Shown in pieces: positions 1,297-34,859 of a stretch of 34,985 nt of DNA. The translations under genes were made by a program, and so were the position numbers. Source of the stretch: Patescibacteria group bacterium (GTDB lineage: Bacteria > Patescibacteriota > Minisyncoccia > Phycocordibacterales > UBA12079); contig JBDRMF010000015.1 of assembly GCA_043812415.1 (NCBI GenBank), forward strand, positions 1 to 34,985, given 5' to 3'. Each line of letters starts with the position of its first letter. The stretch's first letter is position 1. Below the pieces are notes generated by a model. That model ran no database searches. It was given only the letters and a program-made list of their open reading frames with translations, and was not told where the DNA came from.

Positions 1297-1300
1297 ACTT

Positions 1301-3584: not shown

Positions 3585-3656
3585 AAAAAATAAATATGAT
3601 AAATAAAAATTTAGAAACATACCCAGTGCAAGTAATTGGTTTCCAAAGAAGTCTGT

Positions 3657-3664
3657 TGTATAAT
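3657..3664 (+). promoter_or_regulatory. -10 element TGTATAAT of the ftsW operon (copy A)
   Basis: The octamer TGTATAAT lies 10 nt upstream of the ATG at 3675, with TTGGTT 17 nt upstream. The same octamer is conserved at 26750-26757 upstream of ftsW copy B, although the surrounding sequence has diverged. Confidence 0.5.
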
Positions 3665-3674
3665 TATCGGTGAT

Positions 3675-4781
3675 ATGTCCCAAAAAAGAAAAATTGATAA
3701 GGTTTTCGCCAGCATTGCCATCGCGTTGGTTTTGCTCGGTTTTTTTCTCTTTGTGTCCGCTTCTCTGGGGGTGTTAGCGAAAGACAAAAGTAATTTCTTA
3801 TCTGTCTTTTCCACGCAAATAATTTTAGGTTTGGCGGGCGGAATGGCCAGTCTGATTATTTTGTCAAAAATTTATTATAGGGAATACAGAAAATACGCTT
3901 TTTATATTTTTGTGGTGGCGTTAATTATTTCTTGTTTGGTTTTTATCCCTAATATAGGAATTGAACACGGTGGAGCCAAACGCTGGTTGGACATCGCGGG
4001 TGTTTCTTTTCAACCAGCGGAATTTTTGAAAATAGGTTTTGTTATTTATTTTGCAACCTTGCTTTCCGCTTTTAAATTAAAATTACATCAGTGGAAATAT
4101 GGCATAATTCCGATTATGTCTTTATTGTTTAGCGTTGCCGTCATCGCTTTTTTTCAACCGGATTATGGAACTTTATTGGTTATCGCCATCACCGCATTAG
4201 GAATGATTTTGGTCGCCGGAATTAATTTGAAACATTTTTTTGTCATAATCGGTTCAGCTCTGATAACCATTGTTCCGTTAACATTGATATATAAATCTTA
4301 TATATTAAGCAGATTATTGTTTTTTTTCAAACCCGGAGACAGTTTGTTGGGAGCAGGTTACCAAATAAAACAATCGCTTATTGCCATCGGTTCGGGCGGA
4401 ATTTTTGGCAAAGGTTTCGGACAAAGTATTCAAAAATTCGGATTATTGCCGGAGCCGATGGGGGATTCAATTTTTGCGGTTACCGCGGAAGAATGGGGTT
4501 TTATCGGAGCGACTATTTTAACAGCTTTGTTTTTATTTTTTGCGTTAAGAGGACTGAGCATCGCTTCGCGTTCCCAAGATGTTTTTGGTAGACTATTGGC
4601 AGTGGGAATTGTTATACTTATAGTATCGCAATCGTTTTTAAATATCGCTTCAATGTTAAGCATATTTCCGATAATAGGTATGCCATTGATTTTTGTGAGT
4701 CAGGGCGGGACGGCTTTATTATTCGCTTTGGCGGAAGTCGGAATTTTATTAAATATTTCCAAATATAAAACAATACAATGA
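3675..4781 (+). CDS. ftsW: FtsW/RodA (SEDS) family peptidoglycan glycosyltransferase, copy A
   Basis: Polytopic membrane protein with SEDS-like blocks (QPAEFLK, QPDYGT, IGSGGIFGKGFG, LPEPMGDSIFA, EEWGFIG). The start is set at the internal ATG (MSQKRKIDK), which aligns with copy B. Its stop overlaps the murG start (ATGA). Confidence 0.88.
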   Translation: MSQKRKIDKVFASIAIALVLLGFFLFVSASLGVLAKDKSNFLSVFSTQIILGLAGGMASLIILSKIYYREYRKYAFYIFVVALIISCLVFIPNIGIEHGGAKRWLDIAGVSFQPAEFLKIGFVIYFATLLSAFKLKLHQWKYGIIPIMSLLFSVAVIAFFQPDYGTLLVIAITALGMILVAGINLKHFFVIIGSALITIVPLTLIYKSYILSRLLFFFKPGDSLLGAGYQIKQSLIAIGSGGIFGKGFGQSIQKFGLLPEPMGDSIFAVTAEEWGFIGATILTALFLFFALRGLSIASRSQDVFGRLLAVGIVILIVSQSFLNIASMLSIFPIIGMPLIFVSQGGTALLFALAEVGILLNISKYKTIQ

Positions 4782-5914
4782 AAATATTATTTACAGGAGG
4801 AGGAACCGGTGGTCATTTTTATCCGTTGATTGCCGTGGCCCAAGAAATAAATAAAATTATTAAGGAGAAAAAAATTATTCCGCCTAAATTATATTATTTA
4901 TCAAATAATTCTTACGACAAGAGATTATTGTTTGAAAACGGAATAACTTTTAAAAAAATTTCCGCCGGCAAATTAAGAAGGTATTTTTCCTTTCTTAATT
5001 TTTTTGGGTTATTTAAAACGGCTTATGGTCTTGTAAAATCTTTATATTTAATTTGGAAGATTTTCCCCGATGTTGTTTTCAGCAACGGCGGAAATGTGGC
5101 TTTCCCGGTTTTATTAAGCGCCAAAATATTTAAAATTCCAGTTTTTATCCATATTTCCGACGTGATACCCGGCCGAACAAATCGTTGGGCTTCTAAATTT
5201 GCCCAACGGGTTTCCACCGCCTTTCCGGAAACTTGCGAATATTTATCCGTGAAAAAAGAAAAGGTGGCTGTTTTAGGCAACCCTATTCGGAGAGAATTGA
5301 TTATACCGCTTGAAAAAGGAGCGGGCGAGTTTTTGCAAATGGAAAATGACATACCTGTTATTTTTGTCTTGGGCGGTTCCAGTGGAGCGCAAACTATCAA
5401 TGAAAATTTAATTGATATTTTGCCGGAATTGACGGAAAAATATCAAATCATTCATCAAACAGGAAAACAATTATTTGAGGATGCGAAAAGACGAGCTTTT
5501 TTGGTTTTAGAAAACAGCAAAAATAAAAAAAGATATAAACCTTTTCCATATTTGAATACTTTGGCGATGAGAATGTCCGCAGGCACTTCCAATTTGATTA
5601 TATCAAGAGCGGGCGCCAATTCCATTTCGGAAATCGCAGTGTGGGGCAGGCCCAGTTTAATAATTCCCATTTCGGAAGAAGTGAGCGGTGACCAAAGAAA
5701 AAACGCTTTTGCGTTTGCGCGAGCGGGAGCATGCGTAGTGATTGAACAAAAAAATTTAACACCTATATTATTTTTAGCCGAAATCAACAAGCTTATGGAT
5801 GATAAAGAAAAAATGAAAACAATGGGAATAAAAGCCAAAGAGTTTTCGCGACAAAACGCCGCCAACAAAATAGCTGATGAAATAATTAATATTGCGATAA
5901 AATATGCCGAATAA
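4778..5914 (+). CDS. murG: UDP-N-acetylglucosamine--LPS/lipid I N-acetylglucosaminyltransferase MurG, copy A
   Basis: 378 aa with the N-terminal G-loop GGGTGGHFYP and a GT28-like C-terminal half (GGSSGA, ISRAGANSISE). Confidence 0.88.
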   Translation: MKILFTGGGTGGHFYPLIAVAQEINKIIKEKKIIPPKLYYLSNNSYDKRLLFENGITFKKISAGKLRRYFSFLNFFGLFKTAYGLVKSLYLIWKIFPDVVFSNGGNVAFPVLLSAKIFKIPVFIHISDVIPGRTNRWASKFAQRVSTAFPETCEYLSVKKEKVAVLGNPIRRELIIPLEKGAGEFLQMENDIPVIFVLGGSSGAQTINENLIDILPELTEKYQIIHQTGKQLFEDAKRRAFLVLENSKNKKRYKPFPYLNTLAMRMSAGTSNLIISRAGANSISEIAVWGRPSLIIPISEEVSGDQRKNAFAFARAGACVVIEQKNLTPILFLAEINKLMDDKEKMKTMGIKAKEFSRQNAANKIADEIINIAIKYAE

Positions 5915-7301
5915 CAAAGAAATTACTAATAAAGTCATTACACGGTTTCCGCCTTCTCCCACCGGCTTGTTTCATATTGGCAGCGCGAGAACGGCTTTTT
6001 TTAATTATCTTTTCGCAAAACACAATAATGGAAAAATGCTTTTTAGATTGGAGGATACGGACAAGCGGAGGTCAAAAAAAGAATTTGAAGAAAATATTTT
6101 AGAGAGTTTGATTTGGCTGGGTTTGGATTTTGACGGCGAAATTTCAAAACAATCGGAAAGAACGGCAATATATAAAAAATACATTCAAAAACTGATTGAT
6201 GAAAACAAAGCTTTTATTTCAAAAGAGGAAATTGATTTGACTTCGTCCGACACGAATAAGTCGGCGGAAAAACGCGCGAAAGTGATTCGTTTTAAAAATC
6301 CGAATATTAAAGTTGTATTTGATGATTTAATCAGAGGACGAGTGGAATTTGACACAACTGAATTGGGCGATTTTGTGATTGCCAAAAGTTTAGAAGAACC
6401 GCTTTATCATCTAGCGGTTGTGGTGGATGATTTTGAAAGCGAAATTACTCATATTATTCGCGGAGAAGACGGTATTTCAAACACGCCTCGGCAAATTTTA
6501 ATTCAAGAAGCGCTCGGTGTGCCTCGCCCAATTTACGCGCATTTGCCGTTGATTTTAGCTCCTGACAAATCAAAAATGTCAAAAAGATACGGGGCCATTT
6601 CCATAAACGAGTATAAAAAAATGGGGTATTTGCCGGAAGCCGTGCTTAATTATTTGGCTTTATTGGGCTGGAATCCGGGAACGGAACAAGAAATTTTTTC
6701 CGTGGAAGAATTGATTAAAGAATTTGATTTGAAAAAAGTTCACAAGGGCGGGGCGGTGTTTAACATTGAAAAACTTAAGTGGATAAATAAAGAACATATA
6801 AAATTGATGTCCGAGAAAGATTTTAAAAATAAAGTTTTGGAATTTTTACCGAATGAAATTAAAAAAATGACGCTCGGTGATAACAAAATGTTCAATAAAA
6901 TTTTACCGCTTATAAAAGAACGAATTGAAAAATTTGAAGATGTGGCGGACTTGGCGAAAGTGGGGGATTGGAATTATTATTTCGTTCAGCCGGAATATAA
7001 AACAGAAAAAATATTGTGGAAAGATGATAACGATTTGAACAATGTTAAAAAACATTTGGAAAAAATCATTTCACTTTTGAATGAAATGGAAATTTTTTCA
7101 GCTGAAAAAATAAAAGAAAAAATTTGGGATTATGCGACAGAGCAGGGGAGAGGTTTTGTCCTGTGGCCGATGAGATACGCTTTGTCCGGCAAAGACAAGT
7201 CTCCGGACCCATTTGTGTTGGCGGAGGTTTTGGAAAAAGCAGAAGTAATCAAACGACTCAAATATGCAATTGAAAAAATTAATTCAACAAAGATTGTCTA
7301 A
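5904..7301 (+). CDS. gltX: glutamyl-tRNA synthetase, copy A
   Basis: 465 aa with class I signatures HIGSARTA (HIGH) and KMSKR (KMSKS), plus RFPPSPTG and RGEDGISNTPRQ. It overlaps the murG end by 11 nt. Confidence 0.92.
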   Translation: MPNNKEITNKVITRFPPSPTGLFHIGSARTAFFNYLFAKHNNGKMLFRLEDTDKRRSKKEFEENILESLIWLGLDFDGEISKQSERTAIYKKYIQKLIDENKAFISKEEIDLTSSDTNKSAEKRAKVIRFKNPNIKVVFDDLIRGRVEFDTTELGDFVIAKSLEEPLYHLAVVVDDFESEITHIIRGEDGISNTPRQILIQEALGVPRPIYAHLPLILAPDKSKMSKRYGAISINEYKKMGYLPEAVLNYLALLGWNPGTEQEIFSVEELIKEFDLKKVHKGGAVFNIEKLKWINKEHIKLMSEKDFKNKVLEFLPNEIKKMTLGDNKMFNKILPLIKERIEKFEDVADLAKVGDWNYYFVQPEYKTEKILWKDDNDLNNVKKHLEKIISLLNEMEIFSAEKIKEKIWDYATEQGRGFVLWPMRYALSGKDKSPDPFVLAEVLEKAEVIKRLKYAIEKINSTKIV

Positions 7302-8667
7302 GTTTTTCAAACAAAGACAAACATCAATTCAGACATTTCGTTTGGGAATATTATTCCTAAATTTTTGGAAATACTATTCCCAAAAATTATTTGGATGGAT
7401 TTTGATTTTTGCATTTGTTGGGGGGTTAGTTTGCCCCATATATATTAACGCAACTCAAATTGATGAATTAAAATCTCAAATTTCTGAAAAAAGTTTAGAG
7501 ATGAAACAATTGGAAGAAGAAATTGAAAAATGGGAAACGGAAATTGAAGTAATCGGGACAAAGAAAAAAAGTTTGAGCAACGAAATAAATTATTTAAACA
7601 CAACACAAAAAAAAATAAATTCCGATATTTATTTGACCAGCAAACAAATAAACACCGCCGGTTTAACAATTGAAAAATTAGGTATTGAAATAAACGAGAA
7701 AAAACAAAATATTCAAACAAGTTCCGCGGCCTTGTCAGAAACACTCAAAACAATCAATGAGCAAGAAACCACCACTTTTTTGGAAACTTTATTAACTTAT
7801 AATACTTTATCCGAATTTTGGAATGATATGGAAGGACTGCAGAAAGTGCAGGCACAGATAAAAAACAAAACCAGAATATTAAAAGATTTAAAAGCCGGAA
7901 TGATTTCTGACAAGGAAGAATTGGAGCAAAGAAAAAATGAATTGTCTTCCCATCAAGTTGAGTTGACTGACAAAAAAGAAATAGTTGAAAATACCAAAAA
8001 AACAACAAACGAATTATTGGTTGATACCAAAAACAAAGAATCAAATTATCAGGAAATTTTGGATGAAAAATTAGCCCTCAAAAAAGCCTTTGAAAATGAG
8101 TTGAGAGAATACGAAGATAAATTAAGACTTATTGTGGACCCCACCAGTATTCCTGACGCCGGTTTTAGCGTTTTGAGTTGGCCACTTGATAAAATTTATA
8201 TAACTCAATTTTTTGGCAATACTCCTTTTGCCACAAAAAATCCTCAAATTTATGCGAGCGGGGAGCATAACGGGGTGGATTTTAGGGCGTCAATAGGAAC
8301 TGATTTAAAAACGGTTTTAAGCGGAACGGTAGTTGCGACAGGCGACACCGATATCGCTTGCAAAGGAGCTTCTTACGGCAAATGGGTTTTGATTAGACAT
8401 AATAACGGGCTTTCTACCGTGTATGGACATATGTCTAAAATTTCAGTGGAACCGGGGCAAATTTTGGTAACGGGGGATAAGATTGGCTACACTGGCAATA
8501 CAGGAGCATCAACTGGCCCCCATTTGCATTTTGGAGTTTTTGCGACACAAGGCGTGGCGGTGAAAGAATATAATTTTAATTCTTGCAAAGGTAAATCAAC
8601 AACAATGCCAATGGCAACAAAAGACGCGTATTTAAACCCGATGTCATATTTACCGGAATATAAATAG
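7264..8667 (+). CDS. coiled-coil M23 (LytM/EnvC-like) peptidase, copy A
   Basis: It has an N-terminal TM segment and a roughly 250-aa charged heptad-rich region. The C-terminal M23 core carries HNGVDFRA (HxxxD) and GPHLHFGV (HxH). The ATG overlaps the gltX end by 38 nt, as in copy B. Confidence 0.85.
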   Translation: MQLKKLIQQRLSKFFKQRQTSIQTFRLGILFLNFWKYYSQKLFGWILIFAFVGGLVCPIYINATQIDELKSQISEKSLEMKQLEEEIEKWETEIEVIGTKKKSLSNEINYLNTTQKKINSDIYLTSKQINTAGLTIEKLGIEINEKKQNIQTSSAALSETLKTINEQETTTFLETLLTYNTLSEFWNDMEGLQKVQAQIKNKTRILKDLKAGMISDKEELEQRKNELSSHQVELTDKKEIVENTKKTTNELLVDTKNKESNYQEILDEKLALKKAFENELREYEDKLRLIVDPTSIPDAGFSVLSWPLDKIYITQFFGNTPFATKNPQIYASGEHNGVDFRASIGTDLKTVLSGTVVATGDTDIACKGASYGKWVLIRHNNGLSTVYGHMSKISVEPGQILVTGDKIGYTGNTGASTGPHLHFGVFATQGVAVKEYNFNSCKGKSTTMPMATKDAYLNPMSYLPEYK

Positions 8668-8805
8668 TAGTATAATGAAGATACTCAAAAAAGTCGCAAA
8701 AATATCGGAAAAATTAGAGGTGAAAATTTTGAGTTTTGAGGAGAAAATAAACTTATACAGGTTTATTATTTTAAATAAATTTAAAAATACTATATAATTA
8801 GAAAT

Positions 8806-9129
8806 ATGATGAATTTTAAAAATGATAATAGGGGATTGGTAAAATGGATTATTATAATTTTAATAGCAATTATTATTTTAAGTTATTTTGGTTTTGATTT
8901 GCGGGCAATTGTGGGATCAGATGCGACTCAAAATAATTTGTCCTATGTCTGGGGTTTGGCGGTAACCGTGTGGAATGATTATTTGTCGCGACCAATTCTT
9001 TATTTTTGGCACAATATTTTCATTGATTTGCTGTGGGAAAGTTTTGTTGACAATATGAACAGAATAAAAAACGGGGAACCGACTACTATTGAAAATTTGG
9101 CGCCGGAAATTGTGAAAATTCCAAATTAA
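8806..9129 (+). CDS. conserved small membrane protein (hypothetical), copy A
   Basis: 107 aa with one N-terminal TM helix. It is strongly conserved with 32044-32352 (YFGFDLR, NLSY.WG..VTVWN.YLS.P.LYFWHNIFIDLLWE). TATAAT at 8793-8798 ends 7 nt before the ATG. Confidence 0.65.
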   Translation: MMNFKNDNRGLVKWIIIILIAIIILSYFGFDLRAIVGSDATQNNLSYVWGLAVTVWNDYLSRPILYFWHNIFIDLLWESFVDNMNRIKNGEPTTIENLAPEIVKIPN

Positions 9130-9177
9130 CAGGGGAATAATAAACTGATTAGTAATAATTGGTTAGTTTAAAAAATG

Positions 9178-9203
9178 AAAAAATTTGCGGAGCAAATTTT
9201 TTT
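9178..9203 (+). terminator. rho-independent terminator after the membrane protein gene (copy A)
   Basis: An 11-bp stem AAAAAATTTGC/GCAAATTTTTT with loop GGA runs into a T tract. A near-identical hairpin sits at the same position in copy B (32386-32410). Confidence 0.6.
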
Positions 9204-9222
9204 AATACTTAATACTTATATT

Positions 9223-18430: not shown

Positions 18431-18440
18431 AAAAGGGATC

Positions 18441-22996: not shown

Positions 22997-23157
22997 GTTA
23001 AAAGTCCATAAAGTCCATAAAGTTAAAAGAAACGAGGCGAATTTTGGCTCTGCCAAAATCTGCCTATAGAAATTTACCACAAAATTTGACACCGCGGACT
23101 GTTTGCTATAAGATGTAACGCACATTGATTAACATTGATTAAAATTAAAATATTTTT

Positions 23158-23689: not shown

Positions 23690-23691
23690 AT

Positions 23692-23720
23692 TTGACATAA
23701 GACGCGCGCGGCAATATAAT
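23692..23720 (+). promoter_or_regulatory. consensus sigma-70-type promoter of groES-groEL
   Basis: TTGACA (23692-23697), a 17-nt spacer, then TATAAT (23715-23720), 46 nt upstream of the groES ATG. No CIRCE inverted repeat is visible downstream. Confidence 0.6.
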
Positions 23721-23766
23721 GAAGCAGTCTTGTTATCAATTTATTACTAACTTAATTTAATTTTTT

Positions 23767-24159: not shown

Positions 24160-24345
24160 AAAATTTAAGAGGAACAAATTTTGAATTTAAAATTTTGAAT
24201 TTTAATTCAATTTTGAATGACTGAATTTTGAATGTTTAAACATTCTGTCATTAAAAATTTGTTATTCAACCAAAATTCGAAATTCGAAATTCTTTTTGAG
24301 ACCCAACTTTTTATTAAAAAATAATAATTAATCTGCAATAAAGAT

Positions 24346-26007: not shown

Positions 26008-26008
26008 A

Positions 26009-26073
26009 AAAACAAACAGAGCGAAAAAAACGGGTTGCCAAAGGCAACCCGTTTTTTTCGCTCTGTTTGTTTT
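26009..26073 (+). terminator. groEL terminator, 31-bp perfect stem
   Basis: The 26009-26039 arm pairs perfectly with 26043-26073 (checked base by base), with loop AAA. The stem starts 2 nt after the groEL stop and its 3' arm ends in GTTTGTTTT. Confidence 0.85.
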
Positions 26074-26507
26074 AGAATCCTAAACCTGCCTGCCGGCAGG
26101 CAGGTCAAGAATTATGAATTATGAACGGCGTCTGCCTTAGGCAAACGCCGTTTTTAATTTTAATTTGAAATTGTGGCGGATGACGGAGAGATTTATGGCT
26201 ATTTAATTTATGGCTATGCGATAGCCATAATCTGCGGAGGTTCAACCTCCGCACCGCAAATAACCTCCGCAAAAAAGACTCACTTCCGCAAAAAATAAGA
26301 ACCCCCCTACGGTATAGGGGGGAAAAGGAGGGGCTGAAGCCCTTGGTATTAAGAAGCCGCTGTCCCAATTGCTCTTGTTTCGGGGCGCTTTTACAAAAAG
26401 CGACCCGAATCACAGCTAAGCCTCTCAAAGAACTTCAACCGTCGATATGATACCAAGCTCGCTAAAATTTGTCAAATCAAAAAAAGCATTCAACCTGTTG
26501 GCGCAGA

Positions 26508-26603
26508 ATTCTCTCAGTGCTCCAAGCACTAAGAAGAAAATACTTGTTATTTTTGAGTTATCCACAATTTTAATTTACTTAGTGCTTGGAGCACTGAGAG
26601 AAT
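26508..26603. repeat. MITE-like hairpin element with GTGCTCCAAGCAC core (copy 2)
   Basis: 26-bp perfect inverted repeat ATTCTCTCAGTGCTCCAAGCACTAAG (26508-26533 / 26578-26603) around a 44-nt spacer. Its core is shared with 21561-21632. Confidence 0.8.
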
Positions 26604-26749
26604 ATTTGTTTTGTAATTACTCCAATTGATTGGAGTAATTATATAAATTGAAATCTGATAACTGAGATGGCGAAGCGACAAACAATACAAAAATTTGGGG
26701 ATAAAAGCGGGCGGGGTGTTTTCCACTTTTCCACCAGGGCGGTTTTTGC

Positions 26750-26757
26750 TGTATAAT
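26750..26757 (+). promoter_or_regulatory. -10 element TGTATAAT of the ftsW operon (copy B)
   Basis: Same octamer as 3657-3664, 9 nt upstream of the ATG at 26767. Confidence 0.5.
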
Positions 26758-26766
26758 CAAAGGGAA

Positions 26767-27879
26767 ATGTCCCCTAAAAGAAAGTTTGATAAATTTTTCG
26801 CGACGGTTCTGGCTATTTTAATTTTGGTCGGTTTTTTTCTATTTGTTTCGGCGTCTTTAAGTTTGCTGGCAAAAGAGAGCGGCGCGAAATTTTCATCCAT
26901 ATTTTTCAGCCAATTTGTGTTTGGTCTCGCGTTCGGCCTGGTGTTTTTAATTGTTTTTTCAAAAATTCATTACCGCAAATACAAAAAATACGCTTTTTAT
27001 ATTTTTTTGGCCGCGCTGGTCGCGTCGTGTCTTGTGTTTGTTCCCGAGCTGGGTCTTTTCCACGGCGGGGCGAGAAGGTGGCTTTCCATCGCGGGCGTTT
27101 CTTTTCAGCCGGCTGAATTTCTTAAATTCAGTTTTGTGATTTATTTCGCCGCCATCTTGGCGTCTTTCAAGTCCAAATTTTATCATTGGAAATTTAGCAT
27201 TCTGCCCGCTCTGATTATCTTGTCTGTCATCGCTGTTATTTCATATTTTCAACCGGACTTTGGGACATTGCTCATTATTGGAATAACCGCGGTCGCGATG
27301 ATTTTTGTTTCCGGTATTCGTTTCAAGCATCTTGTGATTACCGGCTTATTGATGGCGGTCTGTTTGACGCCGCTCGCGTTTTCAAAGGAATATTCTCGCG
27401 AGAGAATACTAAATTTTTTCAACAACTCTGAAAGCGCGCAAAACGACGAAAATTATCAAATAGAGCAATCGCTTATCGCGATTGGTTCGGGTGGTTTGTT
27501 CGGAAAGGGTTTTGGAAAAAGCGCGCAAAAATTCGGCGTTCTGCCCGAGCCGATGGGGGATTCCATTTTCGCGGTTACAGCCGAAGAGTGGGGCTTTATC
27601 GGCGCGTCGCTTTTGGTTTTGCTTTTTTTCCTGTTCACTTGGCGCGGTTTGAGAATCGCGTCCCGCGCGCCGGATTTATTCGGTAGACTGCTGGCGGTCG
27701 GATTTGTTATACTGATAGCGTCGCAGTCGTTCATAAATATGGGTTCTATGCTGCATATTTTTCCGATTATCGGAATGCCGCTTTTATTTATCAGTCAAGG
27801 GGGAACGGCTCTGCTGTTTGCTTTGGCGGAAGCGGGAATAATTTTGAATGTTTCTAAATATCAGGGGAGCGGCGGTTAG
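26767..27879 (+). CDS. ftsW: FtsW/RodA (SEDS) family peptidoglycan glycosyltransferase, copy B
   Basis: It aligns end to end with copy A and shares the same blocks (QPAEFLK, QPDFGT, IGSGGLFGKGFG, LPEPMGDSIFAVTAEEWGFIG). The start is set at the ATG (MSPKRKFDK) that aligns with copy A. Confidence 0.88.
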   Translation: MSPKRKFDKFFATVLAILILVGFFLFVSASLSLLAKESGAKFSSIFFSQFVFGLAFGLVFLIVFSKIHYRKYKKYAFYIFLAALVASCLVFVPELGLFHGGARRWLSIAGVSFQPAEFLKFSFVIYFAAILASFKSKFYHWKFSILPALIILSVIAVISYFQPDFGTLLIIGITAVAMIFVSGIRFKHLVITGLLMAVCLTPLAFSKEYSRERILNFFNNSESAQNDENYQIEQSLIAIGSGGLFGKGFGKSAQKFGVLPEPMGDSIFAVTAEEWGFIGASLLVLLFFLFTWRGLRIASRAPDLFGRLLAVGFVILIASQSFINMGSMLHIFPIIGMPLLFISQGGTALLFALAEAGIILNVSKYQGSGG

Positions 27880-27900
27880 GAGGTGTTTATTCAACCAAAA

Positions 27901-27980
27901 GAAGTCCGACCTCGGCTATAATAATTCTAAAAGTTGGATAACTAAAAACAAAGTTGGACATAATTAAGAGGTCGGACTTC
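27901..27980. repeat. inverted-repeat element inserted between ftsW and murG of copy B
   Basis: 13-bp inverted repeat GAAGTCCGACCTC / GAGGTCGGACTTC (27901-27913 / 27968-27980). It belongs to the same GAAGTCCGAC word family as 11551-11563 and 11616-11628. Confidence 0.75.
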
Positions 27981-28137
27981 GCGCGGCATAATTTGCCAGT
28001 AAGCAAGTTCATAAGAAAAATATGGCCCATGTTAAATATCATTTGAGTTAAAAGAACTCAAATGACTCAAATTTTTACAAAATTTGATTTAACAGGGCAA
28101 TATTTTTCTAATTCGCCTTGCTCATAAGAAAAATATT

Positions 28138-29274
28138 CTGAAAATAATACTCGCGGGCGGGGGGACGGGGGGACATTTTTATCCTCTAATCGCCGTCGCT
28201 CAAAAAATAAATAAAATTGTCGCGGAACAAAAGCTTTTGAAGCCGAAGCTGTATTATTTGGCTGACAATCCTTACGACAAAAAACTGCTGTTTGAAAATG
28301 AAATTATTTTTAAAAAAATATCAGCCGGAAAATTGCGGAGATATTTTTCAGTTTTGAATTTTTTCGGCGTTTTCAAAACGGGCTGGGGTTTTATCAAAGC
28401 GTTTTTTTTGGTTTTTAATATTTTTCCGGATGTGATTTTCAGCAACGGCGGCAATATCAGTTTTCCTGTTTTATTAAGCGCCAAAATTTTCAAAATTCCT
28501 GTGATTATTCATATTTCCGACGCGGTTCCGGGCCGGACAAATTTGTGGGCGGCGAAATTTGCCCGCAAAGTCGCGGTCGCTTTTCCGGAAGCCGTTGGCC
28601 GTTTGCCGATAGAAAAAGACAAAATTGCCGTGTTGGGCAATCCGGTCAGAGAAGAATTAGTTCATCCACTTTCAGAAGGAGCCGCCGAATTTTTGGGTCT
28701 AAGCAAAGAAATCCCGACTATTTTGGTATTGGGAGGCTCAAGCGGCGCGCAAATTATAAACGAAAATCTTGTGGACATTTTGCCGGAATTGGTTGAGGAA
28801 TACCAAATTATTCACCAAACCGGAAAAAAATTATTTGAGGAAACCAAAGGTCGCGCCGGGGTTGTTTTGGAAAAAAGCGAACACAAAAACAGATACAAAG
28901 CGTTCGCTTATTTGAACACTTTGGCGTTGCGATTGTCGGCGGGGCAGGCGGATTTGGTGATTTCCCGCGCCGGCGCCGGTTCCATTTCGGAAATTGCCGT
29001 CTGGGGACTGCCGAGCATTATTATTCCCATTCCGGAAAGCGTGAGCGGCGACCAAAAGAGCAACGCGTTCGCGTTCGCGCGCGCCGGCGCGGCGGTCGTG
29101 ATTGAGCAGGACAATTTGACGGCCAATTTATTTTTGTCGCAAATAAATAAATTAATGAGAGATGAAGACAGCCGAAAAAAAATGGGGGAGAACGCTCGAA
29201 AATTTGCGCGCGCCGGCGCGGCCGAAAAAATCGCCGCGGAAATTATCAATATCGCTTTAGAACATGCAGACTAA
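28138..29274 (+). CDS. murG: MurG, copy B, with non-canonical (CTG/ATT) start or N-terminally damaged
   Basis: The frame is open from 28093. Codons 28138-28236 encode LKIILAGGGTGGHFYPLIAVAQKINKIVAEQKL, which aligns with the copy A N-terminus including the G-loop. There is no ATG/GTG/TTG before the TTG at 28237 that the ORF track uses. CTG at 28138 aligns exactly with the ATG of copy A. Confidence 0.75.
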   Translation: MKIILAGGGTGGHFYPLIAVAQKINKIVAEQKLLKPKLYYLADNPYDKKLLFENEIIFKKISAGKLRRYFSVLNFFGVFKTGWGFIKAFFLVFNIFPDVIFSNGGNISFPVLLSAKIFKIPVIIHISDAVPGRTNLWAAKFARKVAVAFPEAVGRLPIEKDKIAVLGNPVREELVHPLSEGAAEFLGLSKEIPTILVLGGSSGAQIINENLVDILPELVEEYQIIHQTGKKLFEETKGRAGVVLEKSEHKNRYKAFAYLNTLALRLSAGQADLVISRAGAGSISEIAVWGLPSIIIPIPESVSGDQKSNAFAFARAGAAVVIEQDNLTANLFLSQINKLMRDEDSRKKMGENARKFARAGAAEKIAAEIINIALEHAD

Positions 29275-30643
29275 CAACCATACGAAAATAATTCGGACGA
29301 GAATCGCTCCGTCTCCGACGGGATTTTTGCATATTGGCACCGCCCGCACGGCGTTTTTTAATTATATTTTCGCGAAGCAAAACAACGGGCAAATAATTTT
29401 AAGAATTGAGGATACGGACAAAGACCGCTCAAAAAAAGAATTTGAAGACAGCATTGTGAACGGATTTGAATGGCTCAATATCAAATTTGACGAAACTTAC
29501 CGCCAGTCGGACAGAACGGAAATACACAAAAAATATTTGGAGTCGTTGCTTGCCGCGGACAAAGCTTTTCTCTCAAAAGAACAAGACCAAGATACGGGAG
29601 CGGCCGCGGGTAAACGAAGCGAAGTTATTCGTTTTAGAAATCCCCGCGAAAAAATTTCATTTGAAGACAAAGTGCGAGGGACGGTGGAATTTGACACGGC
29701 GGAGTTGGGGGATTTCGTGATTGCCAAAAGTTTGGATGAACCTCTGTATAATTTTGCGGCGGTCGTGGACGATTTTGAAATGAACATCAGTCATATCATT
29801 CGCGGCGAAGACCACATTTCCAACACGCCGCGGCAAATTCTTTTGCAGGAAGCTCTTGGCTTACCGCGTCCGATTTACGCGCATCTGCCGCTGATTTTAT
29901 CTTCCGACCGGTCCAAAATGTCCAAACGAGGCGGGGCGAAAGATATCTGCCAGTATAAAGAGACGGGCTATTTGCCGGAAGCGCTTTTGAATTATTTAAT
30001 TCTGTTGGGCTGGAATCCGGGCACCGAGCAAGAAATTTTTTCTTTTGAGGAGTTATTGGAAAAATTTGATTTGACAAAAATACAAAAAGGCGGCGCGGTT
30101 TTTGACGCTCAAAAGTTGAATTGGGTCAATAAAGAATACATCAAGTTGTTGGACAGCGAAAATTTCAAACAAAAAGTTTTGGAATTTTTGCCGGAAGCGA
30201 ACAAAAAAATGGCGGCGGCGGACAACGGGAAATTTGAAAAAATTTTGCCGCTGATTCGGGAAAGAATTGAAAAATTTGAAGATGTCGGCGAATTGTCTCG
30301 GGCGGGGGATTTGAATTATTATTTCGTCCAGCCGAAATATGAGACGGAAAAATTATTATGGAAAGGAGAGAATGATTTAACGCGGGTCAAAACTCGCTTT
30401 GAAAAAATATGCAAGTTGTTGGAGAAAGTGAGCGATTTTTCGGCGGACAATCTCAAGCGAAATATTTGGCCTTTCGCGGAAGAAGAGGGGAGAGGGGCGG
30501 TATTGTGGCCAATGAGATACGCTTTGTCAGGCAAAGACAAAACGCCGGACCCTTTTTCGCTGGCTGAAATTTTGGGCAAAGAAGAAACTATCAAACGCCT
30601 CAATTATGCCATTCAAAAAATTATTTCAACAAATAATACCTAA
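29264..30643 (+). CDS. gltX: glutamyl-tRNA synthetase, copy B
   Basis: 459 aa with HIGTARTA (HIGH), KMSKR (KMSKS) and RGEDHISNTPRQ. The 11-nt overlap with murG matches copy A. Confidence 0.92.
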   Translation: MQTNNHTKIIRTRIAPSPTGFLHIGTARTAFFNYIFAKQNNGQIILRIEDTDKDRSKKEFEDSIVNGFEWLNIKFDETYRQSDRTEIHKKYLESLLAADKAFLSKEQDQDTGAAAGKRSEVIRFRNPREKISFEDKVRGTVEFDTAELGDFVIAKSLDEPLYNFAAVVDDFEMNISHIIRGEDHISNTPRQILLQEALGLPRPIYAHLPLILSSDRSKMSKRGGAKDICQYKETGYLPEALLNYLILLGWNPGTEQEIFSFEELLEKFDLTKIQKGGAVFDAQKLNWVNKEYIKLLDSENFKQKVLEFLPEANKKMAAADNGKFEKILPLIRERIEKFEDVGELSRAGDLNYYFVQPKYETEKLLWKGENDLTRVKTRFEKICKLLEKVSDFSADNLKRNIWPFAEEEGRGAVLWPMRYALSGKDKTPDPFSLAEILGKEETIKRLNYAIQKIISTNNT

Positions 30644-31988
30644 ATCTAAACACTTGGGAATAGCATTCCCAAGTACTTGGGAATGCTATTCCCAAGTAGC
30701 GATTTTTTTAATTTTAATTTCGGTTATTGTGACGGCGGGGTTAATTTGTCCGGTTGGTCTAAACGCGTCTCAAATTGACGAGTTAAAGTCCAAAATTTCC
30801 GAAAAAAGTTCGGAAATGCAAAAATTGGAAGAAGAAATAAATGTTTGGGAGAAAGAGCTCACAGCGGTGGGGGAGGAAAAACAAAGTTTAAACAAAGAAA
30901 TAAATTATCTCAATTTAACGGGGAAAAAATTGAATTCCGATATTTCTCTGACAACTAACCAAATAAATGCCACTGGTTTGGAAATTCAAAAATTGGGAAT
31001 TGAAATTGACACTCAGGAAATAGAAATCCAAAAAAATTCCGGCGCTTTGTCTGAAGCGATGCGCGTGATTAACGAACAGGAAGAATATTCATTTTTGGAA
31101 TCAATTTTGGCGCAAGAGACTCTCGCGGAATTTTGGAATGATTTGGAAAATCTGCAAAAAGTTCAAATCGGGATAAAAGAAAAAACCGCCGCTCTGAAAG
31201 AATTAAAAGAAGAATTAATCTCCAGCAAAACACAATTAGAACAAAAGACGCAAGACCTCTCTGTTTATCAATCCGAACTGTCCGACCAGAAAGAAATCGT
31301 GGAAAGCAACCAGTCGGCCAAAAATAATTTGCTGGCGGCGACGAAGAGCAAGGAATCAAATTATCAAAAAATTTTGGACGAGAAGCTCGCGTTAAAAGAG
31401 CGGTTTGAAGCCGAATTGAGAGCCTATGAAGACCAACTGCGGCTGGCGGTTGACCCCGGCAGTATTCCGAAAGCCGGTTTTAGCGTTTTGGCGTGGCCGG
31501 TTGATAATGTTTATATTACCCAGTTTTTCGGGCAAACGCCGTTCGCGACCGCCAATCCGCAAGTCTATGGCAGTGGGGGACACAACGGAGTTGATTTTCG
31601 GGCTTCGGTCGGAACAAAAATAAAAACGGCGTTAAGCGGAACGGTTGTGGCGGTTGGGAACACAGATGATTCTTGTCCGAGCGCTTCCTACGGAAAGTGG
31701 GTTTTTGTGAGGCATAATAACGGGCTGTCCACTCTGTACGCGCATTTGTCTTTAATTAAAGTGAGCGGCGGACAAATTTTGACGACGGGGGATGTAGTCG
31801 GGTACAGCGGCAACACAGGATATTCAACCGGTCCGCATTTGCATTTCGGAGTGTACGCGACGGAGGGCGTGGAAGTAAAAGAATACAGTTTTAAGTCCTG
31901 CGCGGGCAAGTCAACTGTGATGCCGCTGGTGACTCGCCGCGACGCTTATCTTAATCCACTTTCATATTTGCCGGAATATAAGAATTGA
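30606..31988 (+). CDS. coiled-coil M23 (LytM/EnvC-like) peptidase, copy B
   Basis: Same architecture as 7264-8667, with HNGVDFRA and GPHLHFGV. The 38-nt overlap with gltX is conserved. Confidence 0.85.
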   Translation: MPFKKLFQQIIPKSKHLGIAFPSTWECYSQVAIFLILISVIVTAGLICPVGLNASQIDELKSKISEKSSEMQKLEEEINVWEKELTAVGEEKQSLNKEINYLNLTGKKLNSDISLTTNQINATGLEIQKLGIEIDTQEIEIQKNSGALSEAMRVINEQEEYSFLESILAQETLAEFWNDLENLQKVQIGIKEKTAALKELKEELISSKTQLEQKTQDLSVYQSELSDQKEIVESNQSAKNNLLAATKSKESNYQKILDEKLALKERFEAELRAYEDQLRLAVDPGSIPKAGFSVLAWPVDNVYITQFFGQTPFATANPQVYGSGGHNGVDFRASVGTKIKTALSGTVVAVGNTDDSCPSASYGKWVFVRHNNGLSTLYAHLSLIKVSGGQILTTGDVVGYSGNTGYSTGPHLHFGVYATEGVEVKEYSFKSCAGKSTVMPLVTRRDAYLNPLSYLPEYKN

Positions 31989-32043
31989 TGTTAAAATAAA
32001 AAAATTAAATGGTGGTTATGGTAAAATTTAAAAAATTAAAAAA

Positions 32044-32352
32044 ATGAATTTTAAAAACAACAAGGGATTTATCAAATGGCTTTTTCTTATTTTACTGGCG
32101 GTGATTGCGCTGGGTTATTTTGGATTTGATTTAAGAACGATTATTGAGTCGGAACCTGTTCAGGATAATTTATCTTATTTGTGGGGGATAGGGGTGACTG
32201 TTTGGAATGAATATCTCTCCCAGCCGGTTTTGTATTTTTGGCACAATATCTTTATTGATTTGCTGTGGGAGACTTTTGTTGAAAATATGGAACGGCTCAA
32301 AGCCGGGCAAGCGACCACGGCCGAACAATTGGCGCCGGAAATTATGCGATAA
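32044..32352 (+). CDS. conserved small membrane protein (hypothetical), copy B
   Basis: 102 aa, collinear with 8806-9129. Confidence 0.65.
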   Translation: MNFKNNKGFIKWLFLILLAVIALGYFGFDLRTIIESEPVQDNLSYLWGIGVTVWNEYLSQPVLYFWHNIFIDLLWETFVENMERLKAGQATTAEQLAPEIMR

Positions 32353-32385
32353 ATATGAATTATGTATTATGAATTATGAATTAAG

Positions 32386-32410
32386 AAAAATTTGCGAGAC
32401 AAATTTTTTT
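32386..32410 (+). terminator. rho-independent terminator after the membrane protein gene (copy B)
   Basis: 9-bp stem AAAAATTTG/CAAATTTTT with loop CGAGA, followed by a T tract. It is nested inside a 17-bp perfect inverted repeat ATGAATTATGAATTAAG / CTTAATTCATAATTCAT (32369-32385 / 32418-32434). Confidence 0.6.
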
Positions 32411-32454
32411 CTTGACGCTTAATTCATAATTCATAATTCTTAATTCTTTTTCAT

Positions 32455-32574
32455 ATGTGGGAAAAAATTTTAATTATATTTTTGACCGTGTTCGCGATTT
32501 TTTTATACGCGCTCACGGTTCATATTAATAAGGTTGTGGATGACCCCATTATTAAAGAAAATTTGGATATTTAG
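32455..32574 (+). CDS. conserved 39-aa hydrophobic micro-protein, copy B (absent from the ORF track)
   Basis: ATG at 32455, TAG at 32572-32574. It encodes MWEKILIIFLTVFAIFLYALTVHINKVVDDPIIKENLDI, 26/39 identical to the copy at 9223-9342 with no indels. Confidence 0.55.
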   Translation: MWEKILIIFLTVFAIFLYALTVHINKVVDDPIIKENLDI

Positions 32575-32675
32575 AATTAAAAATTGAAGATTAAAAATTA
32601 GAATTGAAACTTGTTTGCTGACTGGCAAACCAAAAAGGTAATCTTCTCCGCGGTTGGATATTAAAACTCTTAAAT

Positions 32676-32787
32676 CGCAATTTTGGGCTTCGTTTTGACC
32701 TTAAAATTGGCGAATTCTAGGGTTGGTTAAATACAGTGATTTTTAGGGCAAAAGATTGGTAATGTCGCAAAAGGTATATTGTGCGAC
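32676..32787. other. conserved non-coding box pair (candidate sRNA or regulatory element), copy B
   Basis: Box A (32676-32694) and box B (32762-32787) are identical to copy A. The spacer is 67 nt here against 88 nt in copy A. Confidence 0.35.
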
Positions 32788-32989
32788 GGTATATTTATTT
32801 AACCCCCTACCTTTCCTCTCTCCCCGACCCCCGCGCTTAAAATATATTGTTTTTGCTTACGACAAATTTTTACAGTCGCAATTTTATTCTTACCCCCTTC
32901 CCTTTGTCTATTGAAAAATTAAAAAAAATCGGAGGTTCAACCTCCGCAGTTGCTTGTTTTGCCGCCAAACTGTATCCCCTATTTTTTGA

Positions 32990-33017
32990 TTGACAAATGT
33001 TGAGATTATGATATGAT
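32990..33017 (+). promoter_or_regulatory. promoter of the receiver-domain gene
   Basis: TTGACA (32990-32995), a 16-nt spacer, then TATGAT (33012-33017). The downstream AAAGGAG Shine-Dalgarno at 33065-33071 precedes ATG 33082. Confidence 0.5.
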
Positions 33018-33081
33018 TTTATTTGAAAGTTTGTCCTTCAAAATTGAAAATTCAACCAAAACCAAAAGGAGACGCGGACAG

Positions 33082-33456
33082 ATGAAAAAAATAATGATAG
33101 TTGATGATGAACCAAAGATGCGGAATTTATTAAAAGCATTTCTGCAGAAAGAATACATTGTCTTCTCTGCAGGAAGGGGTGATGAGGCCTGGAAAATTTT
33201 AGGTAATCCCAAATTGATTTTCAAGCCCGACCTTTTGATTACAGATGTTGAGATGCCTGGGGAAATAAATGGACTCCAATTGGCCAAGCAGACCAAAGAA
33301 ATCTTTCCTGCCTTGCCCATTATTGTGATGACCGGATTGTTGAGCAAAGGGATTGTTCTCCCCCCCAAAAACGGAGGCGCGGATGTTTATTTGGGGAAAC
33401 CCTTTCGGTTAGCTTTCTTGGACAAAATGATAAAAAAACTACTGGGCTTATCATAA
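33082..33456 (+). CDS. stand-alone CheY-like response regulator receiver domain
   Basis: 124 aa from the SD-preceded ATG. It has the acidic pair in IVDDEP, phospho-acceptor D in LLITDVEMPG, T in VMTG and K in LGKPF. There is no output domain and no counterpart in block A. Confidence 0.85.
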   Translation: MKKIMIVDDEPKMRNLLKAFLQKEYIVFSAGRGDEAWKILGNPKLIFKPDLLITDVEMPGEINGLQLAKQTKEIFPALPIIVMTGLLSKGIVLPPKNGGADVYLGKPFRLAFLDKMIKKLLGLS

Positions 33457-33488
33457 TCAGACCCAGAATAAATTTTGTTGTCTATTTT

Positions 33489-33525
33489 CGGCGTCCACCT
33501 TTGGTGGACGCCGTTTTCTTTTTTA
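33489..33525. terminator. bidirectional terminator between the receiver gene and Ada-like gene copy B
   Basis: 11-bp GC-rich stem CGGCGTCCACC/GGTGGACGCCG with loop TTT, followed by TTTTCTTTTTT. Confidence 0.7.
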
Positions 33526-33909
33526 TATTCCTTTGCAATTGCTGGCTGGAGTGTAACCCGCTTTTTCGGCTTCTTCTTTTGAATTAAACCAAATTTGATT
33601 TTCTTCTTTTATTCTTTGCGCGCCTGAACACCACGGCGCGTGGTATTTGTCGCTGTTTTTGGAAGCGACATATTTTCCCCCGAGAACTAATGCGGGGACA
33701 TCTGTTTCTATCGGAACTAAAACTGAAGCCAAATTGGCGTTTTGAATGGAAAGTGGAATTTTGTTTTCTTCCAGCGCGGATAAATGCCCCAAGGCGAACG
33801 AACTTAAAGATGATAAAATTAAAACCGAAACGACAAAAACAGCCTTATTTTCCAAAACCCTCTCCCCCGCCCGCTTGATTTTATTTAACTTTTCCTTTAT
33901 ACTCTGCAT
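33523..33909 (-). CDS. membrane-anchored protein with C-terminal Ada-like Cys/His domain, copy B
   Basis: 128 aa with the same N-terminus (MQSIKEKLNKIK) and the same C-terminal domain (KYHAPWCSGAQRIKEENQIWFNSKEEAEKAGYTPASNCKGI) as copy A. Confidence 0.55.
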   Translation of the reverse strand: MQSIKEKLNKIKRAGERVLENKAVFVVSVLILSSLSSFALGHLSALEENKIPLSIQNANLASVLVPIETDVPALVLGGKYVASKNSDKYHAPWCSGAQRIKEENQIWFNSKEEAEKAGYTPASNCKGI

Positions 33910-33911
33910 GA

Positions 33912-33933
33912 TTTGATATTATAATAATATCAA
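33912..33933. promoter_or_regulatory. conserved palindrome at the Ada-like gene start (copy B)
   Basis: TTTGATATT-ATAA-TAATATCAAA region, with 9-bp arms TTTGATATT/AATATCAAA. The minus strand carries TATAAT 8 nt before the ATG at 33909. Confidence 0.4.
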
Positions 33934-33962
33934 ACTTAATTCATAATTCATAATACTTAATC

Positions 33963-34235
33963 ATGGCGCATAAAAAAGCCGCCGGGTCGGCAAAAAATTT
34001 TAGAGATTCCGGACCGCAATATCTGGGAACAAAATTATATGACGGGCAAACGGCAAAAACCGGTTCCATTTTGGTTCGCCAAAGAGGAACAAAAATTTTG
34101 GCCGGAAAAAATGTAGGCATTGGAAAGGACCACACGCTTTTTGCTTTGAAAGAAGGACAAGTGAAATTTACCGAAAAAAGAAAACTGAATTTTGACAGTT
34201 CTAAAAGGCGAAAAAAAGTCGCGAATGTTTTCTAA
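33963..34235 (+). CDS. rpmA: 50S ribosomal protein L27, copy B
   Basis: 90 aa, with 70 of 90 residues identical to copy A by hand alignment and no gaps. Confidence 0.93.
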
Positions 34236-34299
34236 AAAACGCGAAATAAAAAAACCGCAAAATTAATTTTGCGGTTTTTTTATTTCGCGTTTTTTAGAA
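34230..34299. terminator. 70-nt perfect palindrome (bidirectional terminator) overlapping the rpmA copy B stop codon
   Basis: Positions 34230-34299 are perfectly self-complementary (checked base by base), centred on AATT/AATT. A/T tracts on both sides suit termination in both directions. Confidence 0.8.
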
Positions 34300-34343
34300 T
34301 TATAAATTGTAGATTGTAAATTGTAAATTAAAAATCACGAGAA

Positions 34344-34375
34344 AAATTTGCTCCGCCAGCTGGCGGAGCGAATTT
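34344..34375 (-). terminator. rho-independent terminator of rplI copy B
   Basis: Stem AAATTTGCTCCGCC / GGCGGAGCGAATTT with one mismatch and loop AGCT. On the minus strand it is followed by TTTTTCTC. Confidence 0.6.
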
Positions 34376-34412
34376 TACTCATGATTCATAATACTTAATT
34401 CATAATTCATCA

Positions 34413-34859
34413 TCATTTTTCTTCGGCTTTGATATTTAAACTCAATTCGGTTTCTTCTTCTCCTATTTTAATTTTAACTTTGTGCTCCCCCGCTATCTTG
34501 ATGGGTTTCTCCAATTCTAAAATTTTTGGATTTATGTTCAAACCCGTTTTTTCCTGAATGGCTTGGGCTATTTCCTTTTTGTCTAAACTGGCGAATAATT
34601 TTCCCTCTTTATTGGCTTTCGCTTTTATTTCAATCGGTTTTTTCAATTTTCCAAGTTTATTCTTTAATTCCGCTATTTCAGCGTTTTTGGTTTCTTCCTC
34701 TTTTTTCCTCTCCGCTTCTAATTCTTTAATGGCTTGTTTAGTCGCTAAACGCGCCAATCTTTGAGGCAATAAAAAATTGAGCGCGTATCCGTCGGACGCG
34801 TTTTTGACTTCAAATTTTTTGCCAAATTTGGCGACATCTTGCAATAAAATAATTTTCAT
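34413..34859 (-). CDS. rplI: 50S ribosomal protein L9, copy B
   Basis: 148 aa with the N-terminal MKIILLQDVAKFGKKFEVKNASDGYALNFLLPQR, collinear with copy A. Confidence 0.9.
   Translation of the reverse strand: MKIILLQDVAKFGKKFEVKNASDGYALNFLLPQRLARLATKQAIKELEAERKKEEETKNAEIAELKNKLGKLKKPIEIKAKANKEGKLFASLDKKEIAQAIQEKTGLNINPKILELEKPIKIAGEHKVKIKIGEEETELSLNIKAEEK

Follow-up and report, generated by a model that had tools for sequence, protein, structure and literature searches.

The 34,985 nucleotides (nt) analysed here, hereafter the window, make up one whole contig of a Patescibacteria group bacterium (NCBI GenBank assembly GCA_043812415.1, contig JBDRMF010000015.1). They carry two diverged copies of a gene block that runs from ftsW to rplI. 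In both copies the block encodes the SEDS protein FtsW, MurG, GltX, a coiled-coil M23 peptidase, a small membrane protein, a micro-open reading frame (micro-ORF), a membrane-anchored Cys protein and the ribosomal proteins L27 and L9. We call the left copy A and the right copy B, and consider how both came to lie on one contig.

Two collinear ftsW-rplI blocks

The features of the two blocks are given below, with protein lengths in amino acids (aa).

Block A
3675-4781, plus strand: ftsW copy A, SEDS protein (PF01098, E 3e-89)
4778-5914, plus strand: murG copy A (PF03033 and PF04101), ATG start, 4-nt overlap with ftsW
5904-7301, plus strand: gltX copy A (MFH1402118.1), 65% identical to copy B and up to 72.5% to other organisms
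7264-8667, plus strand: coiled-coil M23 peptidase copy A (PF01551)
8806-9129, plus strand: 107-aa membrane protein copy A, no Pfam match, homologues at the same position in many related loci
9223-9342, plus strand: 39-aa micro-ORF copy A, MWEK start
9423-9555, plus strand: non-coding boxes copy A, a 19-nt box (9423-9441) and a 26-nt hairpin box (9530-9555)
9636-10061, minus strand: membrane-anchored Cys protein copy A
10210-10482, plus strand: rpmA (L27) copy A (PF01016)
10498-10956, minus strand: rplI (L9) copy A (PF01281 and PF03948)

Block B
26767-27879, plus strand: ftsW copy B, assigned by self-blastn and pair alignment
27880-28137, plus strand: ftsW-murG spacer specific to block B, with a 13-bp perfect inverted repeat (27901/27968) and a leader
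28138-29274, plus strand: murG copy B, full-length in frame, ATG start destroyed
29264-30643, plus strand: gltX copy B (MFH1402138.1)
30606-31988, plus strand: M23 peptidase copy B
32044-32352, plus strand: 102-aa membrane protein copy B
32455-32574, plus strand: 39-aa micro-ORF copy B
32676-32787, plus strand: non-coding boxes copy B (32676-32694 and 32762-32787)
33013-33456, plus strand: response-regulator receiver gene, in block B only (PF00072, E 1e-19)
33523-33909, minus strand: Cys protein copy B
33963-34235, plus strand: rpmA copy B
34413-34859, minus strand: rplI copy B; the contig ends 126 nt further, within a 42-nt tandem repeat

Sensitive self-blastn aligned block A (3654-10964) with block B (26747-34867) along one collinear diagonal of six pieces, at 68-82% nucleotide identity and with E values down to 0. 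The same search gave no end-to-end match of the contig. A circular or terminal-overlap artefact was therefore rejected, as the contig ends do not match. At the amino acid level the copies share 62.7% identity in FtsW, 68.8% in MurG, 65.1% in GltX, 64.3% in the M23 peptidase, 66.7% in the 102/107-aa membrane protein, 64.1% in the Cys protein, 77.8% in L27 (70/90) and 59.6% in L9. An earlier, sequence-only reading of this DNA had reported the same elements in the same order, with L27 identical at 70/90 positions and FtsW, MurG and GltX at roughly 60-70 percent. The elements and the identities were recovered as described, with all eight protein pairs at 60-78%. The order also stands in that the blocks are collinear; however, block B has the additional response-regulator gene and a 258-bp insert between ftsW and murG.

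Synonymous divergence between the pairs is saturated (dS 0.8-2.1) and the ratio of nonsynonymous to synonymous divergence (dN/dS) is 0.10-0.24. All pairs thus appear to be under purifying selection and both gene sets look functional. Pfam supports the families of the block (FTSW_RODA_SPOVE, Glyco_transf_28 with its C-terminal domain, Peptidase_M23, Ribosomal_L27 and the N- and C-terminal domains of L9). Moreover, the catalytic signatures listed by the sequence-only reading are encoded in copies A and B alike, namely HIGH/KMSK in GltX, HxxxD/HxH in the M23 peptidase and the G-loop in MurG. Its view that neither block is a pseudogene array agrees with the purifying selection, although the start codon of murG_B has been lost. 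Its Ada-like Cys protein is present in both blocks, but the Ada label derives only from a weak Ada_Zn_binding match (E 0.0035) that falls below the cut-off.

The block in related genomes

Scans with an alignment of GltX A and B were run against the GTDB species representatives and the JGI metagenomes, and the best 80 loci of each were considered. The scans returned Paceibacteria/Zambryskibacteria-like loci, cited below by their L numbers. Across dozens of genomes and metagenome contigs the relatives show the order ftsW-murG-gltX-M23-membrane protein-(variable)-Cys protein-rpmA-rplI, and ctpA-corA-cysS commonly comes next. In these relatives the locus is conserved and present once. None of the best 80 GTDB and best 80 metagenome loci has a second copy in the same genome or contig, and L163, L165 and others hold one block each. 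The closest relatives of GltX_B lie on separate contigs, L161 (NCBI GCA_053999995.1) and L163 (ENA k141_259748, 28 kb, one complete block), and the collections hold no relative more than 80% identical.

The downstream context of copy A, rplI-ctpA-corA-cysS, is the canonical one in relatives, whereas that of copy B is truncated by the end of the contig. The position of copy B behind groES/groEL is matched in no relative examined, and almost every relative has a different region ahead of ftsW. Gene order is poorly conserved beyond operons and broken adjacencies are therefore weak evidence. The spacer between rplI_A and ctpA (10957-12082) is 1.1 kb long, non-coding and rich in repeats and hairpins, compared with 30-310 nt in relatives. 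Within it, a sub-threshold match to L20_leader on the minus strand (11832-11947; 29.5 bits against a gathering score of 58.7) is probably noise. An Rfam scan returned nothing at gathering score, its sub-threshold matches being hairpin noise, and there are no tRNA or tmRNA genes in the window.

Both blocks share the fine structure of the conserved Paceibacteria locus, including the 11-nt overlap of murG and gltX, a hairpin behind gltX, the MWEK micro-ORF and the 26-nt hairpin box; the difference is that relatives carry one copy per contig and the window two. The 11-nt overlap is found in both copies and in L163, whilst the 38-nt overlap between the longest ORFs of gltX and the M23 gene is found in both copies. 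Upstream of ftsW_A and ftsW_B lies TGTATAAT, and a hairpin with a T-run follows the membrane gene at ~9181-9203 and ~32389-32411. The overlaps, the ftsW upstream sequence and this terminator hairpin had all been noted from the sequence alone and are confirmed here. The hairpin right after the gltX stop lies at 7341-7384 in A, 30652-30697 in B (46 nt, perfect), ~1981-2001 in L081 and ~11367-11395 in L163. This places it inside the 5′ end of the longest M23 ORF. Translation of the M23 gene may begin only downstream of the hairpin, and the 38-nt overlap would then be a product of ORF calling.

The micro-ORFs (9223-9342 and 32455-32574) are identical at 26/39 positions, the very count first given by hand, and a 41-aa homologue is called in L163. 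Their product is a hydrophobic protein of 39-41 aa with the pattern MWEK[IF][FL]IIFL...DP.I..N, encoded just after the 102-107-aa membrane protein and confirmed in A, B and L163 (13113-13238). A 40-aa ORF at the same position in L165 (14240-14362) is matched by position only. Two non-coding boxes are indeed identical between A and B as claimed, one of 19 nt (9423, 32676) and one of 26 nt (9530, 32762). The 26-nt box, however, is general to the group: ATGTCGCAAAAGGTATATTGTGCGAC, with the stem GTCGCA/TGCGAC, recurs with 0-4 mismatches in at least 30 related loci, including L047, L146, L158 and L163. Therefore, its identity between A and B says nothing on recent exchange. In loci with mapped gene order it lies downstream of the M23 or small-membrane-protein genes, even where GltX is only ~40-45% identical. 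It has no Rfam match; a regulatory or RNA element conserved in Paceibacteria is probable.

Block B departs from the common arrangement at the start of murG. A 3-nt insertion at 28135-28143 has split the ancestral ATG (AT-TCT-G), such that L161 has AAGTATGAAAATA where B has AATATTCTGAAAATA. There is no ATG, GTG or TTG ahead of the G-loop, only ATT and CTG in frame, and the first canonical start, at 28237, would cut off the G-loop. Intact apart from its start, murG_B would thus need a rare ATT or CTG start. The 258-bp insert (27880-28137) stands where block A has a 4-nt overlap, and contains a leader that matches the ftsW-murG spacer of L161 at 84% identity. The leader of ~130 nt upstream of murG_B (28018-28149; 8764-8886 in L161) is also 77% identical to 11415-11546 of L164, which lies directly upstream of rplI. 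Thus the same leader or promoter cassette would precede different genes across lineages.

Phylogeny and composition of the two halves

Copies A and B do not group as sisters. A neighbour-joining tree of concatenated FtsW, MurG, GltX and M23 sequences gave (A,(B,L163)), with B and L163 (plus L161) together in 200/200 bootstraps and A with B in 0/200. Copy A and L163 are AT-rich and B is GC-richer, so the grouping of B with L163 runs against compositional attraction. GltX_A is 67-72.5% identical to many other organisms as compared with 65% to GltX_B. Its well-populated clade includes P0007 (72.5%), P0010 and P0011 (from L081), to whose members GltX_B is only 59-64% identical. GltX_B itself is 68-70% identical to L161 and L163. 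Unique changes in a three-taxon count were 272 for A, 222 for B and 217 for L163, a near-trichotomy with A as the outlier, and B shows no rate acceleration against the single-copy L163 (chi-square 0.06). Moreover, three-way sliding identity of A, B and L163 gave no A-B excess anywhere in the block that would mark gene conversion; the A-B nucleotide identity tracks A-L163 and B-L163 along its entire length. These comparisons indicate that A and B are orthologues, the same locus of two related Paceibacteria (Patescibacteria) lineages, and not paralogues made in one genome.

The difference between the copies is shared by the genes around them, which are given below.

3212-3523: membrane-anchored small winged helix-turn-helix (wHTH) protein, upstream of ftsW_A
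10957-18430: rest of the left domain of low GC content at third codon positions (GC3), with the repeat-rich spacer, ctpA, corA, cysS, a spacer and rnr (Pfam; GC3 0.31-0.37)
12083-13306, minus strand: ctpA (Pfam)
13541-14464: corA (Pfam)
14455-15906: cysS (Pfam)
15907-16471: tandem-repeat-rich spacer between cysS and rnr
16472-18430: rnr (Pfam)
18431-18873: junction spacer between rnr and the ATPase gene, proposed breakpoint at ~18500-18690
18874-26766, plus strand: unique part of the right high-GC3 domain (Pfam, GC3)
18874-21561, plus strand: P-type ATPase (Pfam)
21926-22996, plus strand: rmuC (Pfam)
23158-23689, plus strand: phd/parE toxin-antitoxin pair (Pfam)
23767-24159, plus strand: groES (Pfam)
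24346-26007, plus strand: groEL (Pfam), then a spacer with TTAGTGCT-N3-AGCACTAA palindromes

Genes of at least 250 aa have a GC3 of 0.349±0.025 in the left half and 0.494±0.026 in the right, without overlap (p = 3e-4). For reference, the median within-locus standard deviation of GC3 across 48 related loci is 0.039. Gene by gene, GC3 is 0.30-0.41 from ftsW_A through rnr. On the right it is 0.48 in rmuC, 0.52 in groEL and 0.45-0.50 from ftsW_B through the response regulator, and the only lower values there belong to small genes (the toxin-antitoxin pair, groES, Cys protein B, rpmA_B and rplI_B). The step falls at the junction, from 0.374 in rnr to 0.525 in the ATPase gene, and splits the contig at ~18.5-18.7 kb. 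The GC difference between the halves is larger than in all 46 control loci. In 5/8 of the A/B pairs the GC3 gap is 0.13-0.16. The pairs also differ at first codon positions (GC1), which argues that copy B has long been under a different base-composition pressure from A. The sequence-only reading had seen a higher GC content at synonymous sites in block B; GC3 agrees, and extends the difference past the block to the ATPase gene, rmuC and groEL.

These data bear on the first of the three explanations put forward from the sequence, an ancient segmental duplication in one lineage with both copies under selection, maybe as subfunctionalised cell-division and translation modules. Intact copies with dN/dS of 0.10-0.24 would be expected under it, and the halves do share an oligonucleotide signature and some small repeats (see below). 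Against this, A and B are not sisters, and L161/L163 and the GltX_A clade branch between them, such that repeated losses would be needed. The gap in GC3 and GC1, and the fact that the unique neighbours share the composition of each half, are difficult to reconcile with co-residence, which would have equalised them. Moreover, gene conversion is not visible, the signature is also present in other genomes, and related genomes with two copies were not found among the best 80 loci of either scan. We therefore consider an ancient duplication very improbable and already close to refuted. The other two explanations offered both fit, namely that a block was acquired from a related lineage or that the assembly is chimeric.

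The left contig end forms a third compositional class. A very AT-rich island (694-3071; GC3 0.15-0.17) encodes an N6/N4 DNA methylase (PF01555) and ORFs of 376 and 200 aa without Pfam match, and is probably a mobile restriction-modification system. The adjacent wHTH protein (3212-3523) has a 71% identical homologue in L008 (961-1164), which there adjoins a P-type ATPase gene upstream of the gltX block. That ATPase is 47% identical to the one in the window, and the ATPase and wHTH genes may be old neighbours of the ftsW-gltX locus.

The junction and the origin of the contig

Several repeats are confined to, or enriched in, one half of the window. A GC-rich repeat with the core CCTCGCRAAGAC is found at 11634, 11822 and 18468, with related sequence at the contig start, and is absent from the right half. 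It has many copies in L082, L112 and L114, those in L082 being 93% identical. The TTAGTGCT-N3-AGCACTAA palindromes are found in the right half only, at 21558, 21617, 26514 and 26579. Period-7 microsatellites account for 17 Tandem Repeats Finder (TRF) rows right of 18.5 kb as opposed to 5 left of it, in similar intergenic amounts. Within the junction spacer the left-type GC-rich repeat (18436-18500) is succeeded by low-complexity tandem repeats (18538-18685) and then by right-type period-7 microsatellites (18687-18833), with ~10 overlapping TRF arrays within 18538-18833. The half-specific repeats thus place the switch between 18,500 and ~18,690, inside a 300-bp tandem-repeat run. This spacer is one of the two most tandem-repeat-dense of the contig; the other flanks rnr at 15907-16471.

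The palindromes form two pairs (21554-21644 and 26508-26606), each a larger inverted repeat, that bracket rmuC, the toxin-antitoxin pair and groES/groEL. Their arms loosely resemble half-sites of the controlling inverted repeat of chaperone expression (CIRCE), for which the spacing and position are wrong. Single copies are found in L161, L146 and L168.

The rnr-ATPase and cysS-rnr adjacencies, whose conservation would have done away with the proposed breakpoint, are absent from the relatives examined (66-77% identity), at a distance where gene order is fluid, and no independent contig with the same rnr-ATPase junction was found. In the nearest rnr relatives murE-ftsI-ftsL-rsmH-mraZ is divergent from rnr (L168 at 77%, L169/L170 at 71%), and relatives in the copy A clade continue from cysS into DnaB and RecR (L164, L165). 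Non-canonical neighbours on both sides of rnr, together with flanking spacers that are the most tandem-repeat-dense stretches of the contig, are no more than suggestive of a multi-part misassembly. Such a contig would join at least three true segments (1 to ~16.1 kb, rnr alone, and ~18.7 kb on), some of whose joins could lie within one genome. The best k-mer split, at ~16.6 kb once the restriction-modification island is left out, would suit this. However, the broken adjacencies count for little where gene order is so fluid. Moreover, the GC3 of rnr is of the left type and rnr is followed by the left-type GC-rich repeat, which fits contiguity with the left segment. This variant is therefore improbable.

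We infer, with a probability of roughly 0.55, that the contig is an assembly chimera of two genomes; counting in the multi-part variant, a chimera of one form or another becomes somewhat more probable than that. Bases 1 to ~18,500 would come from a low-GC3 population and hold the restriction-modification island, the wHTH gene, block A, ctpA, corA, cysS and rnr. Bases ~18,700 to 34,985 would come from a co-occurring higher-GC3 population and hold the P-type ATPase gene, rmuC, the toxin-antitoxin pair, groES/groEL and block B. The assembler would have crossed genomes inside the 300-bp AT-rich tandem-repeat run between rnr and the ATPase gene. A chimera is favoured because the right half is plain core chromosome without an integrase, transposase, tRNA or phage gene, because both gene sets are intact with B evolving no faster than the single-copy L163, and because no relative among the best 80 loci of either scan shows such a duplication. 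The location of the switch in a tandem-repeat-dense spacer also favours it, given that inter-genome translocations are the commonest metagenome misassembly and that short tandem repeats are enriched in misassembled contigs (PMC9661791).

Translocation chimeras between genomes are described in the metaMIC benchmarks of MEGAHIT, metaSPAdes and IDBA-UD (PMC9661791). The window resembles them in that the contig would switch between related genomes in a region of short tandem repeats, with a step in composition and with normal-looking chromosome on each side. It differs in that the usual cases are close strains or species joined via long exact repeats or conserved genes, whereas the lineages here are ~69% identical in DNA, no long shared exact sequence is visible, and the case is known from sequence alone.

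Several observations weigh against an assembly artefact. The longest exact match between the halves is 26 nt of low complexity, and no long exact sequence is shared that would be an obvious trap for de Bruijn assembly. Among the best 120 hits there was no second, B-type ctpA of this metagenome-assembled genome (MAG), and the bin is no obvious 1:1 mixture. The lost ATG of murG_B could be the first decay of a redundant copy. Furthermore, exact look-ups of five proteins of the window, among them rnr with a start codon other than the annotated one, returned no record, and the nearest relatives are only ~70-77% identical.

Both halves also share small repeats. A family of 13-bp perfect inverted repeats occurs at 11551/11616 and 27901/27968, with arms 65-67 nt apart, one compensated substitution on both arms and unrelated loops. 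The left copy (11551-11628) reads GAAGTCCGACTTC / GAAGTCGGACTTC and the right copy (27901-27980) is a GACCTC/GAGGTC variant. The motif has no exact match and no paired copy in 2.1 Mb of related loci. The left copy lies in a cluster of similar hairpins (11461-11540). Moreover, a (CAAAATT)-type repeat lies in both halves, where it makes up the 26-nt exact match (11738-11763 and 24173-24198), and occurs a third time at the junction; it was not found in the same 2.1 Mb. Small repeats common to both halves would be natural if the halves share one genome. As proof of a single genome they are weakened by the fact that similar repeats cross lineages, as do the left-type GC-rich repeat, with its 93% identical copies in L082, and the 26-nt box, which is identical in very distant loci.

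The halves also have an unusual oligonucleotide signature in common, rich in CpG (rho 1.3-1.5) and poor in AG/CT (~0.65), which again counts against a chimera. Taking only their unique parts, the two halves correlate at 0.85, compared with at most 0.66 with relatives; when entire halves are compared, the homologous blocks act as a confounder. The signature favours TTG, GGC and CGN codons, is present in L081 and L001 and absent from L161, L163, L164 and L165, and is thus patchy on the phylogeny. As proof of one genome it was rejected, because L081 and L001 match the unique segments of the window equally well (0.83-0.90, k=4). The signature marks a group of lineages and not one genome. Taken together, the shared repeats and signature are only partly explained.

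The remaining explanation is a genuine contig in which the second copy was gained by transfer, a reading we regard as less likely. At least 16.5 kb of chromosome would have come from a related higher-GC Paceibacteria, or the reverse, the donor being a different genus-level lineage. The recipient would have gained a second, foreign ftsW, murG, gltX, M23, L27 and L9 along with the ATPase, rmuC and groES/groEL of the donor. Natural transformation, followed by illegitimate or microsatellite-mediated recombination in the AT-rich spacer, is a plausible route. A transfer predicts the non-sister phylogeny, the two compositional domains and the donor- and recipient-specific repeats just as a chimera does, and small repeats in both halves could have spread after the merger. 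The loss of the murG_B start and the repeat between ftsW_B and murG_B would fit early decay of a redundant copy. The intact genes on either side of the junction and the missing second ctpA likewise speak for it, as does the fact that an assembler would have had no obvious long shared repeat to cross.

However, there is no integrase, transposase, tRNA or direct-repeat border, only one border lies inside the contig, and the cargo is plain core chromosome bar the toxin-antitoxin pair. A phage or plasmid origin of the right half was rejected, as it has no phage match and its plasmid matches are solely to the P-type ATPase motif. With every gene intact and B evolving at a normal rate, the transfer could only be very recent and would nevertheless need to have reached fixation in the dominant population, and the best loci of both scans hold no second copy. 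Moreover, reduced genomes of the candidate phyla radiation (CPR) are not expected to tolerate redundant sets of essential genes for long. Housekeeping genes can gain extra foreign copies by horizontal transfer, for example second aminoacyl-tRNA synthetase genes in bacteria. The window resembles these cases in its diverged second gltX, whose nearest relatives lie in another lineage and whose codon composition is unlike that of its neighbours. In those cases what is acquired is mostly one gene or a short cassette, which often confers a selectable benefit (antibiotic resistance, for example) and frequently travels on a mobile element, whereas the unit here would be at least 16.5 kb of ordinary chromosome, with ribosomal proteins and groES/groEL and without mobility genes.

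In summary, composition, repeats and phylogeny fit acquisition and chimera alike, and sequence alone cannot separate them. If the join is an artefact, the deposited contig needs splitting near 18.5-18.7 kb and the duplicated single-copy markers are not biology. It would also mean that two lineages with a DNA identity of only ~69% can be joined by an assembler within AT-rich microsatellite spacers. Were the join real, on the other hand, we would have a rare case, open to direct observation, of the uptake of a large piece of core chromosome by a reduced CPR genome, ribosomal proteins and the chaperonin operon included. It would then bear on how much DNA exchange is tolerated by bacteria that are proficient in DNA uptake but streamlined.

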